64,000 nt of DNA, taken from NCBI GenBank assembly GCA_963776275.1, contig CAVZMI010000032.1, forward strand, positions 56,359-120,358, in the 5' to 3' direction. The notes under the pieces are model-generated. The model ran no database searches and was not told the origin of the DNA. It was given only the letters and a program-made list of their open reading frames with translations. This stretch comes from Ignavibacteriota bacterium (lineage in GTDB: Bacteria; Bacteroidota; Ignavibacteria; UBA10030; CAVZMI01). A program made the translations under genes and the position numbers. This document shows positions 20,225 to 39,736 of this stretch, one piece after another (the first letter of the stretch is position 1; each line of letters begins with the position of its first letter).

Positions 20225-20470
20225 GGCTGTTTTTACAGCCTTCGATCATTCACAATTCCGCCTTCACTTCCGCCTTCGTTCCAAAAAACGGAACTTCGGC
20301 GGACAAGTCGTTCCGGCGCCTGCCTGCTCGCCTCGCTTCGCTCGGCGAAGCGGGCCGGAGTGCCCGCCTTCAATGAAGCCTTCGGCAGGCGAAGGCCTCC
20401 GGCACGCAGGCCCGCCTTAGTCCGGAGGACGTCGGCGGGCAGGCAGGGACAGGTCGCAAATCACAATTCA
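20225..20470. repeat. Scaffold repeat with multiply nested hairpin mini-elements
   Basis: Same scaffold as 20654-20710 and 39635-39720; nested CCGCC..GGCGGACA(A/G)G and CCTGCC..GGCAGGCAGG units. Confidence 0.75.
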
Positions 20471-20504
20471 TACATACCACTCCTGACGGCGCTCGATACC
20501 GAAA

Positions 20505-20726
20505 AACAATTCTTCATTCACCGTGGTTTGACTCGCTCACCATACTAAAGTACTGCTCACACCACTTACCTTCGACCCCTCGATGAACTCGGGGCAAGCA
20601 AGCTTTGGATTCCGTGGTGCTCGCTGCAGGCTCGAGCCAAGACTCGGCAACCTGGCTGTTTATATAACCTTCGATCATTCACAATTCAAGAATCACAATT
20701 CACAATTTATTTGTAGCCTCGACTCG
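20505..20726. repeat. Dispersed ~220-bp intergenic repeat, copy A (empty TCACAATTC site)
   Basis: Collinear with 39515-39736, e.g. CCAAG.CTC.GCAACCTGGCT.TTTATA...TCACAATTTATT...GCCTCGACTCG. Confidence 0.75.
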
Positions 20727-20811
20727 TTAACGAACCCCGGTAGGGGTGGTATATTTATAGAACCGGATTTCAGAAAAATACAAACCCTGTAAGTGTGACA
20801 TGTTAAAATTT

Positions 20812-21894
20812 CTATTTCAGCAAAACCATCCGTTTTGTTATCGTGACATTTCCGCTCTGGAGACGGCAGAAATAGACTCCACTCGACACCGATGCTGCAT
20901 TCCAACGGATCACGTACGATCCCGGTTCGAGGAGAGCGTTCAGAAGTGTTTCGATTTCCTTCCCTGTGATATCAAAGAGTGTGATCGAGACACGATCATG
21001 TCTGGGCACATGGAATTTGATAGTGGTTCCGGGATTAAAAGGATTTGGATAATTCTGCTCGAGGATGAATTGCGGCGGTGTTCCGTCCACATTCTGTTCA
21101 ACTCCGAGTGTGGCTTCATATGCGATTGCCGCGTTGAATATCTCTTCAACAAGAAGCGGCGCTACATGAGCCGTTGCCGCATCATTCGGGTGGCTGTTGC
21201 CGGACTCGGTGCGGTACGAGTCGGGCAATTTGCCGTCCGAACCGGCAAGATGGTGGAAGAAATCGAAAACATAGACGTTCTGCGGAAACTGTCCGAACGC
21301 CGGGTCGAAACCGCCGGCAAGCGTATCTTTTGCCCAGCGGCAGAATTGGTCGGACAGGAGTGCCGATTCATCGCTGGTCGATTCTCTCTCCTGAGGTGCG
21401 TTCGTCCATACGACGAAAAAGTTCGCCGGGTGGTTTTGCATGACACGGATAAAATTGCGCCAGTGCCACTTGTAATTGAAGATCGTTTTCGATGCCGGAT
21501 CGGTGGTATCCGAGGGCTCGCCCTCGCCCCACAGGTCGGATGATGGAAAACACGATTTAATCATGATAATTTTGTTGGCGGCAAGGTACGGACCGATATC
21601 GGAGGTGGTATCGTTGCTATCGAAAATATCGTGCCACCTGGACCATTCATTATCCCACGGATCCACCGGCCACCATTCTTCGTTGAGCGAGACTGCGAAT
21701 GATCCGGTATATCCATGACTTGAATTATAAGCATCGATCTCCTGCGGAACGCTAGTTGCACTTCCATTCGGTCCCCAGATGCATCCGCCTGTCGAATGGT
21801 GCAGGAATATGCCGCTGCGGAATAGATTTTCTTGCGCGGATGTGGATGTGAGAAAGGAAATTGTCAGCAAGTAAAACAGTATGGTCTTGTGCAT
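20812..21894 (-). CDS. Secreted protein with T9SS type A C-terminal sorting domain
   Basis: Signal peptide after a GGAGGAG RBS; FLHHSTG and IKSCFP N-domain; LEQNYPNPFNP...SGVYFCRL...KRMVLLK tail. Confidence 0.8.
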   Translation of the reverse strand: MHKTILFYLLTISFLTSTSAQENLFRSGIFLHHSTGGCIWGPNGSATSVPQEIDAYNSSHGYTGSFAVSLNEEWWPVDPWDNEWSRWHDIFDSNDTTSDIGPYLAANKIIMIKSCFPSSDLWGEGEPSDTTDPASKTIFNYKWHWRNFIRVMQNHPANFFVVWTNAPQERESTSDESALLSDQFCRWAKDTLAGGFDPAFGQFPQNVYVFDFFHHLAGSDGKLPDSYRTESGNSHPNDAATAHVAPLLVEEIFNAAIAYEATLGVEQNVDGTPPQFILEQNYPNPFNPGTTIKFHVPRHDRVSITLFDITGKEIETLLNALLEPGSYVIRWNAASVSSGVYFCRLQSGNVTITKRMVLLK

Positions 21895-22003
21895 GTACTC
21901 CTCCATATGTAGTTTAGTTATAGTAGATTGCATGTGATAATTTCTTATATCTGCTCACGCACATAATCTACTACCTTTTTACGGCAAAGCCAACTCGACA
22001 TAA

Positions 22004-22022
22004 CCACCGCCAAAGGCAGTGG
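22004..22022. repeat. IS200/IS605- or REP-like hairpin remnant
   Basis: CCACCGCC-AAA-GGCAGTGG; resembles IS605-type subterminal hairpins; no transposase nearby. Confidence 0.35.
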
Positions 22023-22073
22023 ACTTCTGCTTCACACTAAAATAAAGTGGGTCGGTTTTGTTGTGAATTTACC

Positions 22074-36668: not shown

Positions 36669-37904
36669 CTACTTGCGGTAATTCGTATCAACCAGTATCA
36701 AATGGCCTAATTTATCGCGTTTCGTTTTGAGATACCGCTCATTAGTTGCATTCGGTTCGATCTCGAGAGGAACACGCTCCACAATCTCCAGACCGTAGCC
36801 GGTAAGTCCCACAATCTTTTTCGGGTTGTTTGTCAACAGCTTCATCTTCCCCACACCAAGATCATGAAGGATCTGTGCCCCGATGCCGTAATCACGCAAG
36901 TCCGGCCGGAAACCGAGTGCTTCGTTGGCCTCGACGGTATCGAGACCTTCATCCTGTAATTTATATGCCTGCAGTTTGTTCGACAGACCTATCCCTCTCC
37001 CCTCCTGACGCATATACACGATCACGCCCGCACCTGTTTTCTCGATCATTTTCATTGCAGCGACCAATTGATCACTGCAGTCGCATCGTAATGAACCGAA
37101 GACGTTGCCGGTCAGACATTCGGAATGAACACGCACCATGACGGGAACATCGGGCGATAATTCCCCTTTCGTGAGCGCGATGTGTTCATTTGCATCGGTC
37201 TGACTTTTATATAAATGAATATCAAAATTTCCGTACCGTGTTGGAAGCTTCGCCGAAGCGACACGCGTCACAAGTTTTTCGCGCATCATGCGATATTCGA
37301 TCAGATCACGGACGGTGATCATTTTCAAATTGAATTTCTTAGTCAGTTTATGAAGATCGGGAACTCGTGCCATAGCCCCATCGTCGGTGAGGATTTCACA
37401 AAGCATTCCTGCGGGATAGAGTCCCGCAAGGCGGCAGAGGTCAACGACAGCTTCGGTATGTCCTGCGCGGCGAAGGACTCCTCCTTCAGACGCGCGCAGC
37501 GGAAAGATATGCCCGGGTCTGGCAAAATCGCTTGGCTTCGATTTCGGGTCGATTACTGCACGAACAGTTGCCGAACGATCGTATGCCGATACACCGGTGG
37601 TAGTTCCATGAATGAAATCGATTGAAACGGTGAATGAGGTCTCGTGTAGCGAAGTATTGCTGTCAACCATGTTTCCGAGTCCGAGTTCTTCGCTCCGCTG
37701 TTTTGTTAACGGCGTGCAGACGACGCCGCGGCCGTACTTAGTAAAAAAGTTGATAGTTTCAGGAGTAACAAACTCAGCCGCGATAACAAAATCGCCTTCA
37801 TTCTCACGATCTTCATCATCGACAACGATAAGGATTTTTCCCGCTTTCAGATCTTCGATCGCTTCGTGAATCGTATTGAATTCCGATATGTGTTTTTCTT
37901 TCAT
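36669..37904 (-). CDS. ribBA: Bifunctional DHBP synthase / GTP cyclohydrolase II
   Basis: [33 protein letters not shown] and QEGRGIG motifs. Confidence 0.95.
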
Positions 37905-37967
37905 CCCGAGATCTTCCTCTCCCCTCGATATTCGGTGAACACCCAGAGAGAAAATCCCCTCTCCATG

Positions 37968-38312
37968 TTAGTTTATCGGTTTATTATCTTCGCCTTCTCG
38001 GAGAATCGTCGAAACCGCACTTCTATCATATTTCACTTTCACGTTGTCGGCGATTTGTATGAGCAGAGTTTTTTCCTCAACACCGATCACCGTTCCATAT
38101 TCTCCGCCGATCGTGACAACTTTATCTCCCTTTTTTACCGAATCGAGAAGTCTCTGACGTTCTTTTTGTTTCTTCTGCTGGGGACGTAGAATGAAAAGCC
38201 AAAAAATCAGAACCATCGCCCCGAGCATAACGAAGGTCATCATGGGGCTGCCGCTACCGCCGCCATTGGGTTGCTGTCCCATGAAGGCCAACAGGTTTAC
38301 AATTGATATCAA
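37968..38312 (-). CDS. yajC: Preprotein translocase subunit YajC
   Basis: FILRPQQKKQK and KGDKVVTIGG motifs; follows tgt. Confidence 0.95.
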   Translation of the reverse strand: MISIVNLLAFMGQQPNGGGSGSPMMTFVMLGAMVLIFWLFILRPQQKKQKERQRLLDSVKKGDKVVTIGGEYGTVIGVEEKTLLIQIADNVKVKYDRSAVSTILREGEDNKPIN

Positions 38313-38361
38313 AGGATCCTCCTATATTATGTTATTGAGTAATATAATGAATTTTTTAAAT

Positions 38362-39489
38362 TTATTCAGCAGTCGTTTTTTCAAGATCCCGGACCATCCC
38401 ATGCCGCCAGGATTCGAACCGCTGTTCCACAACAGCCTTGCGTGCTTCATGTATAAGCCAGAGATAGAAAGCCAGATTATGAATAGTTGCAAGCTGTAAT
38501 CCCAGGATTTCTTTGGCCATAACGAGATGACGAATATATGCCCGGGAAAAATTCCGGCATGAATAGCAGGTACATTCTTCATCGATCGGCCGGAAATCGT
38601 CCCTATTGACCGCATTCCTGAGATTCATCTTTCCGAACCGCGTAAACACCTGCGCATTTCTTCCGTTGCGTGTTGGAAGCACACAATCGAACATATCGAT
38701 ACCACGTGCAATTGCCTCAATGATATTTGCAGGAGTACCGACTCCCATGAGATACCTGGGTTTGGTAACCGGTAAAATATTACAGCAGAGAGAAGTCATC
38801 TCGTACATTACTTCAGTCGGTTCGCCGACCGCTAATCCACCGATTGCATATCCCTCGAATTCGAGATCGGTCAGCACCCTTGCACTTCGAGTTCGGAGAT
38901 CCTGAAAAACACTTCCCTGAACGATTGCAAAAAGAGATTGCGAATATCCATAGTGCGGCATCGTTTTTATGAACCGCTCCTGCGCTCGCCGGGCCCATCG
39001 CAGTGTCAATTCATGCGAGTGCCGTGCATATTCGAACTCGCAGGGATACGGCGTGCATTCGTCCAGCGCCATCATGATGTCGGAACCAATCACTCGCTGG
39101 ATATCCACGACATTCTCCGGTGTGAAGATATGTGCCGATCCATCGATATGCGATTGGAATTGAACGCCTTCTTCGCTCATCCTCCGCAGGACAGCAAGGC
39201 TGTAAACCTGATATCCGCCGCTGTCTGTGAGTATCGGATGATTCCATGATACGAACCGGTGAAGTCCGCCAGCCTGTCGAAGTATCTCTGTGCCAGGACG
39301 CAGATAAAGGTGATACGTATTTCCAAGGATTATCTGGGCTCCGAGCTCTTCGAGCTCACGCGGTTCGATCGCCTTGACCGCCCCCTGTGTACCGACAGGT
39401 ATAAAAATCGGGGTTTCAATCACCCCGTGAGAAGTCCGAATACTGCCGGCTCTCGCCGCACCATCGCTATATTCGACGGTAAAGTTCAA
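38362..39489 (-). CDS. tgt: tRNA-guanine transglycosylase
   Basis: [28 protein letters not shown] and CxCxxC...H motifs. Confidence 0.97.
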
Positions 39490-39514
39490 AGTGTGGCTCG
39501 ATATCTAATTAATA

Positions 39515-39736
39515 AGAAAATTATTCATTCGTGGTTCGACTCGTCCCAACATACAACGTTGGGACTCGCTCAGCGAAGCCGTACTTTAGTGCACCACAAG
39601 GTCTCGACTTACTCGACCCAAGGCTCTGCAACCTGGCTATTTATACAGCCTCCGATCAATCACAATTCCGCCTTCACTTCGTTTCGGCGGACAGGTCGTA
39701 ACTCAAAATTCACAATTTATTCGTTGCCTCGACTCG
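39515..39736. repeat. Dispersed intergenic repeat, copy B (single 29-nt insert at 39669-39697)
   Basis: Collinear with 20505-20726; extra CGCCTTCACTTCGTTTCGGCGGACAGGTC and a TCCCAAC..GTTGGGA hairpin. Confidence 0.75.

Follow-up and report, generated by a model that had tools for sequence, protein, structure and literature searches.

We analyzed a 64,000-nt stretch of DNA from an Ignavibacteriota bacterium (contig CAVZMI010000032.1, positions 56,359 to 120,358; here called the window), in which an earlier reading of the sequence alone had pointed to short palindromes nested in one another at three copies of one intergenic scaffold. The nested hairpins proved to be a real feature and part of a real mobile-repeat phenomenon, one that works like the single-strand mini elements of the repetitive extragenic palindrome (REP) type. 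The units concerned belong to a family of hairpins of ~30 nt, here called family X, which recurs in other genomes. From comparison of their sites, it is very probable that these units have fixed ends, occupy many unrelated sites, require no target duplication, prefer hairpin loops, and survive within genes when their length is a multiple of three. As to how they spread, we lean, with somewhat less than even confidence, toward the view that they are nonautonomous mini mobile elements moved by an unlinked enzyme of the HUH (Y1) type.

Nested units at three scaffold copies

A 20-nt scaffold pattern matches the window at three places without a mismatch, where the sequence-only reading had put its three copies, and this is beyond chance: none of 100 shuffled sequences reached three matches, and the shuffle mean was 0.05 even with up to three mismatches allowed. 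Loci A and B lie within a single 758-nt intergenic stretch and locus C within one of 291 nt; all three copies are on the plus strand. Copy C (39495-39736, recognized by homology to B) is flanked by two minus-strand genes (a permease gene and tgt) and carries a single 29-nt X unit at 39667-39695, whose next-best ungapped match in the window reaches 19/29. Copy B (20490-20726, homologous to 39495-39736) has no X unit at 20685/20686; it is a composite in which several REP-like hairpins are joined to the heptamer array 20677-20707, and from 20524 it holds an uninterrupted relative of the REP that is interrupted at 39532. At copy A, the left part of the scaffold (20225-20256, a short hairpin and the first heptamer of a 7-bp tandem array, assigned through repeat family D2 and the scaffold pattern) runs into the outer unit, X1 (20257-20453), and by heptamer alignment the array resumes at 20454-20474. 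The insertion point of X1, like that of the unit in copy C, is the boundary between repeats of the array.

Locus A resolves into six units, all on the plus strand; the parse within its 129-nt insert is not unique. X1, which is 29 nt once emptied (20257-20268, 20308-20318, and 20448-20453), has a 6-bp stem, a loop, and the 4-nt tail CAGG. Parse and fold place a sibling unit, X2 (20269-20307, 39 nt, tail CAAG), within its loop, and the 129-nt insert, V (20319-20447), lies within its 3′ arm. V is a CCTG..CAGG palindrome, identified by its fold and its 14-nt arms (93% complementary), with short relatives at L021, L029, and L073 (L numbers denote loci from other genomes, described below). It holds U2 (20327-20354), a 28-nt X-like hairpin parsed from its 5′ arm, with one look-alike in L046; U3 (20363-20394), a 32-nt X-family variant in its loop, whose tail, CGAAG, is found identically in L074; and U4 (20411-20443), a 33-nt X-family variant with a C-G terminal pair and the tail CAGG, recognized by parse and alignment. 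The residue of V (20319-20326, 20355-20362, and 20395-20410) forms a 32-nt palindrome in which 13 of the 14 arm positions pair, and an additional CAGG comes after it.

As had been predicted, removing both inserts from X1 regenerates the simpler form: cutting 20271-20309 and 20319-20447 out of locus A leaves 29 nt with one mismatch to 39669-39697, and with the unit boundaries refined 2 nt leftward (20257-20453, 20269-20307, and 39667-39695), emptied X1 likewise has one mismatch to the unit of copy C. The branched structure proposed for locus A was borne out as well; the locus folds as a branched single strand with z = -4.19, and none of 200 shuffled sequences folded equally well.

The three copies had been called alleles of the same site. 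They are indeed related, emptied C and B being identical at 56/68 positions and emptied A and B at 45/60. However, judged by the extent of their homology, they are paralogous copies of a dispersed scaffold and not alleles, because B and C have a composite repeat of ~250 bp in common but the homology of A is limited to ~36 bp on the left side. One insertion may be common to A and C, and B may be a loss. The idea that such nests record insertion order stood in part, since no order can be assigned to inserts that occupy different positions within a single host. A 25-nt scaffold pattern covering the three window copies had no match in 185,579 species genomes, which apparently do not include the source genome, and locus A gave only chance-level matches to plasmids and phages (63 and 29 records), none covering 80%. 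A tRNA scan found none in the window and accounts for nothing at the nested loci; Rfam at gathering threshold gave no match in the window, with three subthreshold matches in 20054-20811. Neither a promoter scan (two sites against a shuffle mean of 0.6) nor a terminator scan (one site against 1.4) explains the loci.

Family X in other genomes

We scanned species genomes with a two-arm pattern that left both flanks free and obtained at least 120 loci, 80 of them with flanks of up to 5 kb. The 122 matches were reduced to 118 by a stricter innermost-match rule and to 95, in 93 loci, by a flank-blind filter (23 dropped); all counts below out of 95, 94, 93, 92, or 70 refer to these filtered matches among those listed. 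The scan pattern, itself taken from the window units, left only one of the four tail letters free, and the letters that it fixed are not counted as evidence because they are conserved by construction. According to record titles, the family spans at least 12 phyla, with Bradyrhizobium supplying 22 of the 120 listed loci; the exact loop variant of the window X units is absent among the matches listed. Against plasmids and phages, a 30-nt unit gave only 2 and 4 weak partial matches.

In the typical unit, a 6-bp stem is followed by a 3+3 internal loop and a variable inner hairpin, and the 4-nt tail, CAAG or CAGG, is unpaired; in the 29-nt unit of locus C, the outer stem alone forms. On the opposite strand, the unit reads as a bulged hairpin preceded directly on its 5′ side by a tetranucleotide, a tag that is CTTG in 69/95, CCTG in 26/95, and GTAG in 0/95, and TGTC lies two bases from the end. 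The two bases left of the search pattern, which are unforced positions, are TC in 84/95 (background, 6.4%), and this TC is base-paired to the last bases of the 3′ arm. Two of 20 aligned units (the rows were hand-picked), both from the window, have C-G in place of T-A as the terminal pair, with both bases changed, and a further copy with a C-G terminal pair occurs in L058. The second inner pair, on which we did not filter, is Watson-Crick in 46 of 52 distinct variants.

That the palindromes insert as discrete units is supported by the 70 distinct flanking contexts found among the 93 sites and by insertions in protein genes. In CopA of L079 and in LeuRS of L058, the peptide encoded by the unit corresponds to a gap of exactly ten residues against solved homologues. 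Unit length is a multiple of three in 80/95 matches and in 37 of 52 distinct variants (p = 3e-8); the 29 nt of X1 in the window are not divisible by three. Family X also accounts for recurring ten-residue inserts (e.g., SAFAKASADK) in conserved proteins of little-studied phyla. The same CopA has a second in-frame insert, of 22 residues (approximately residues 568 to 590), derived from a different nested hairpin, and the LeuRS of L058 carries a second unit at 3931.

A TC repeated at one junction of locus A had been noted, as would be left by a target-site duplication. To the right of the tail we found TC at 37, CC at 14, and other dinucleotides at 43 of 94 junctions (TC in 23/70 distinct contexts), which puts TC above its 6.4% background yet far from universal; one window nest, at 9249-9292, has no TC on its right. 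The right flank shares no base with the unit start in 50/94, two bases in 32/94, and four or more in 6/94. Within the retrieved DNA, exact empty sites were found when two extra bases were removed together with the unit (12 with both taken from the left, 12 with one from each side, and 8 with both from the right), against none without such removal; many of these matches are not independent of each other, as they derive from a single Bradyrhizobium repeat. The empty sites of L063, L071, and L074 fit removal from the left only, and heptamer phase favors removal of two extra bases in 6 of 11 periodic cases. Hairpin restoration on its own did not single out a register: of 92 sites, it was seen at 10, 10, and 7 with the three 2-nt registers and at 7 with no extra bases removed. 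TC is part of the unit and not a duplication, because the left and right dinucleotides agree in only 38/94 and because empty sites need the two extra bases removed; TC is also paired in the stem and covaries there. We therefore rejected a target-site duplication: TC represents the unit's own first stem pairs together with a loose target preference. Comparison of filled and empty sites places the cut position to within one base.

The targets are often hairpins. Excision of the unit restores a perfect stem of at least 6 bp at 19/93 sites, compared with 5.5% of 3689 control positions, and at 11/70 after similar contexts are collapsed (p = 0.0015). The control positions were nearby and included coding DNA, so that this contrast may be inflated, but the offset profile does not depend on controls: the restored-stem signal is 18/92 at offset 0, 12 at +3, and 2 to 9 at the other 15 offsets. 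Of 34 sites at which a stem of at least 5 bp forms, 18 have the junction one base inside the loop. In keeping with the proposal that the units favor hairpins, including each other's, 37/93 sites lie in recognized repeats, namely CGTC-type (18), CCCC..GGGG (7), GTAG-type (6), and the family's own (6). In L021, from an unrelated genome, a CCTG..CAGG palindrome lies inside a unit, as at locus A; given this and the insertions into its own family, nesting is general. Units also abut or overlap the ends of tRNA genes (L017, 4592-4691; L018, 791-896; L050, 4878-5030; L055, 2266-2420), and in L017 the first five bases of the unit rebuild the start of tRNA-Gly.

Candidate mechanisms

In the explanation that we favor, the nests are, very probably, built by repeated insertion into one hairpin-rich spot, and X would move as single-stranded DNA, with the unlinked HUH (Y1)-type enzyme cutting and joining it in trans. 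The single-stranded target would be provided by the loops of extruded hairpins. The unit's own end and many targets would share the same two bases before the cut, which would explain the apparent TC repeat. That the enzyme is of the HUH type has, by analogy, close to an even chance; we favor this type because it alone joins single strands precisely, with no duplication and with ends defined by hairpins, and because the layout of X is as in REPs. The layout and single-strand chemistry of REP/TnpA-REP and of IS200/IS605 are as in this model, the chemistry being proposed for REPs and shown for IS200/IS605 (PMC8266576). It is more doubtful that X represents a new system of ~30-nt single hairpins across at least 12 phyla, parasitic on loops and shaped by the three-base rule, whose enzyme would be neither an Ssn nor a RAYT (REP-associated tyrosine transposase). 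If true, this system would be among the smallest mobile elements, and one that adds ten-residue loops to essential proteins.

Several observations weigh against the HUH explanation and the picture of precise insertion on which it builds. No movement was observed, and all of the support is comparative. Low-power pattern searches, as opposed to profile searches, revealed no HUH motif either in the window or in 0.73 Mb of flanks. The exact gap was seen in only two of five proteins tried; the ArgRS comparison showed no gap, the region of the unit was unaligned in UvrA, and the L003 protein had no match at the thresholds used. At L019, L070, and L102, exact empty sites appear only in the register with one base removed on each side, which leaves the cut uncertain by one base. 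Pattern-based assignment linked 56/93 sites to no known repeat, and the loose target preference described above differs from the short fixed cleavage sites given in PMC8266576.

A linked HUH or GIY-YIG gene had been suggested for the units of the window, and none is present there. By motif, neither the window nor the 0.73 Mb of flanks contains a RAYT gene flanked by repeats; these flanks cover part of the genomes only. Pfam searches with 89 open reading frames (ORFs) located on or close to units (72 small, within 900 nt, and 17 longer, selected) revealed no recurring nuclease or transposase family; single matches were to Vsr/DUF559, HNH, an rve integrase, and a four-helix bundle. The missing enzyme gene says little, because with many copies per enzyme gene the 80 flanked loci have low power. 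In the window, 21934-22060 contains a hairpin and a 28-residue open stretch (21948-22031) that has no Pfam match; by eye it resembles the end of an IS200 transposase.

Two alternatives to an HUH-type enzyme are improbable, and to a similar degree. One invokes a nuclease of the GIY-YIG type, small and stand-alone (Ssn-like or a relative), that would nick single-stranded DNA next to the hairpin; the unit would then be copied into the new site by recombination or repair functions of the host. For SsnA, binding to a hairpin repeat and cleavage a few bases upstream, restricted to single-stranded DNA, have been reported (PMC11893778), and the TGTC near the end of the unit's other strand would suit such an enzyme. 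Moreover, an 85-aa GIY-YIG gene lies ~1 kb from a unit in L079, next to other hairpin inserts, albeit not flanked by X. However, a profile built from those of 150 GIY-YIG relatives that are shorter than 125 aa found one gene in 0.79 Mb and none in the window, and the Ssn-related motif matches 0/95 units and nothing in the window, with 16 sites in the flanks. A 6-residue peptide derived from the unit occurs in 0/150 relatives (shuffle mean, 1.4) and one derived from the CCTG..CAGG palindrome in 1/150, and a nuclease alone would presumably leave the two exact ends unexplained. The GIY-YIG gene of L079 had no match in plasmids. It lies (3670-4129) between tRNA-Pro and duplicated tRNA 5′ parts that bear other hairpin inserts, and the ends of many of the 150 relatives seem to extend into tRNA sequence.

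The other alternative dispenses with a dedicated transposase: hairpin loops break, and repair patches in short pieces of folded DNA or RNA-templated fragments, using zero to two (sometimes four to six) matching bases. The junctions do lie within loops, the matches between right flank and unit start (two bases in about a third of cases, four or more in a few) are of the kind expected, and RNA-mediated spread has been suggested for the GC clusters of yeast mitochondria (PMC4478555). Against this, the ends are fixed over at least 12 phyla, 50 of the 94 junctions show no match, and the CopA and LeuRS inserts are exact.

A conventional miniature transposon, with a DDE or IS110-type enzyme and TC as duplication or core, is highly improbable. 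TC does follow the tail in four of the five X- or R-type insertions of the window that have a TC start, besides its excess elsewhere; however, a duplication predicts equal flanks at nearly all sites, and the pairing and covariation of TC in the stem largely refute this reading. In addition, neither a double-stranded circle nor a two-ended complex can form on as little as ~30 bp. The least probable account, which the sequence-only reading had itself raised, is that the units never moved, the pattern being instead the product of local slippage or of deletion from a single long ancestral element: although slippage does occur (the heptamer arrays, a 20-nt duplication at 50298-50317), A and C may have inherited one insertion by scaffold duplication with a possible loss at B, and the scaffold beyond its three window copies was not found in the species genomes, the cross-phylum data refute it for the family, through the 70 unrelated contexts and the LeuRS and CopA homologues that lack exactly those ten residues, and four other nests of the window have other hosts.

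Further nests and known systems

The four nested loci besides A involve two further classes of unit, R and Y. A Y insert of 25 nt (39543-39567, plus strand; an 8-bp perfect hairpin and TC, by inspection and fold) lies in a REP-like host from 39532, so that 39532-39580 has two levels. At 50267-50374 (plus strand), alignment of units gives four levels: an R host of 23 nt, Y at 50278-50362 (21 nt), R at 50287-50350 (23 nt, tail CAAG), and Y at 50318-50338 (21 nt). The two Y units are identical at 18/21, and the 20-nt tandem duplication already mentioned lies inside this nest. The two-level nest at 9249-9292 (minus strand) is a 23-nt R unit, identical at 21/23 to the R at 50287, that holds a 21-nt Y (9261-9281) and was inserted bluntly in a heptamer array. 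By inspection, 57024-57094 (plus strand) has three levels, an R-like host, a hairpin unit at 57035-57082, and Y at 57046-57072.

Arrays of 7-bp repeats border all of the nested hairpin loci (9173-9248, 20677-20707, 50206-50235, 50389-50419, and 57095-57115) and are inverted relative to each other at 50.2 to 50.4 kb. In L055, a four-helix-bundle gene (TIGR02436) is edged by similar heptamer runs, and the window arrays may be relics of elements of this type. The strand on which the tail comes first is the mRNA strand of the flanking genes at 9249-9292, 20257-20453, 39667-39695, 50267-50374, and 57024-57094; coding insertions in other genomes have the unit in both orientations. Hairpins of another family, CCCAC..GTGGG, appear nested or clustered at 31230-31480 and 25242-25300 and may resemble IS605-type ends. 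Short GTAG-containing hairpins cluster between nuo genes at 48071-48189.

The window itself (~45% G+C) is chromosomal DNA with housekeeping genes and the nuo operon, and one of its proteins carries a secretion-system C-terminal sorting domain, which suggests a host related to Bacteroidota and probably similar to Ignavibacteria. A glycosyltransferase family 9 domain is fused to DUF3108 at 18188-20053 (minus strand). A 58-nt direct repeat in three copies and attC-like stretches lie at 22119-24217 and 24420-25300, beside small plus-strand ORFs; this region is possibly a cassette array.

Among known systems, the GTAG REPs, with their doublets (REPINs), mosaics (bacterial interspersed mosaic elements, BIMEs), and RAYTs, are similar in having a bulged hairpin of 20 to 50 nt with a tetranucleotide at its foot, dispersed and mostly intergenic (PMC8266576, PMC3116915, and PMC3733652). 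They differ in their tag, since X has CTTG or CCTG and in no case GTAG or a listed variant (0/95, with three tail letters fixed by the pattern), and X spans at least 12 phyla with no RAYT found nearby. A REPIN is an inverted doublet, whereas the X unit is one hairpin with fixed ends, and single hairpins restore the empty sites and reading frames. BIMEs alternate REPs and inverted REPs with linkers, often in tandem, whereas X units are nested in the same orientation. The CGTC/TGTC REPs and the NTS/SRM-Ssn system likewise have TGTC at one end, a short hairpin, and a wide phylogenetic spread (PMC3733652 and PMC11893778), and for CGTC repeats no dedicated transposase was found, according to PMC3733652. 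By description, however, CGTC REPs have an 8- to 9-bp stem, a 4- to 5-nt loop, and an unpaired tag, whereas X has a 6-bp stem with an internal loop and a paired TC; they are themselves targets of X, as noted above. The published SRM pattern fits neither the X units nor the window, as opposed to the flanks.

IS200/IS605 elements insert without target duplication. X does so too, and further likenesses are hairpin definition, precise joining, and a tetranucleotide 5′ of the hairpin (PMC8266576); X differs in having one hairpin and not two palindromic ends, no transposase gene or TnpA relative, and a loose target. Unlike miniature inverted-repeat transposable elements, X has no target-site duplication and no terminal inverted repeats at both ends, its 6-bp stem being followed by an unpaired 4-nt tail. 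Intragenic RPE and BRE also insert in frame into protein genes, although at ~90 to 146 nt and each within one genus or related genera, compared with ~30 nt and a cross-phylum range for X (PMC3184786). The GC clusters of yeast mitochondria are palindromic, nonautonomous units of ~40 nt that merge and shuffle, but these are organellar, unrelated in sequence, and associated with a putative target duplication (PMC4478555).

Nesting and in-frame insertion therefore have precedent in kind; for REPINs, insertion within or beside other REPINs has been reported (PMC3116915). A single unit of ~30 nt whose ends are fixed across at least 12 phyla appears to be undescribed: a literature search that included sequence and peptide words, mostly of open-access text, found no description of family X among the papers listed, although the consensus figures or supplements of PMC3733652 could list it. 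The spread of REP-type repeats is still called unresolved (PMC8266576). For X, donor ends, target, and product are defined with enough precision to allow an assay of cleavage and strand transfer and a genome-wide search for the enzyme; this enzyme, if found, would be a very small and precise insertion system. The nests offer cheap markers of relative insertion age. Single REPs have been argued to be dead remnants of doublets (PMC3116915). In contrast with this view, what is inserted here is a single hairpin, whose ends are exact and whose empty sites can be reconstructed.

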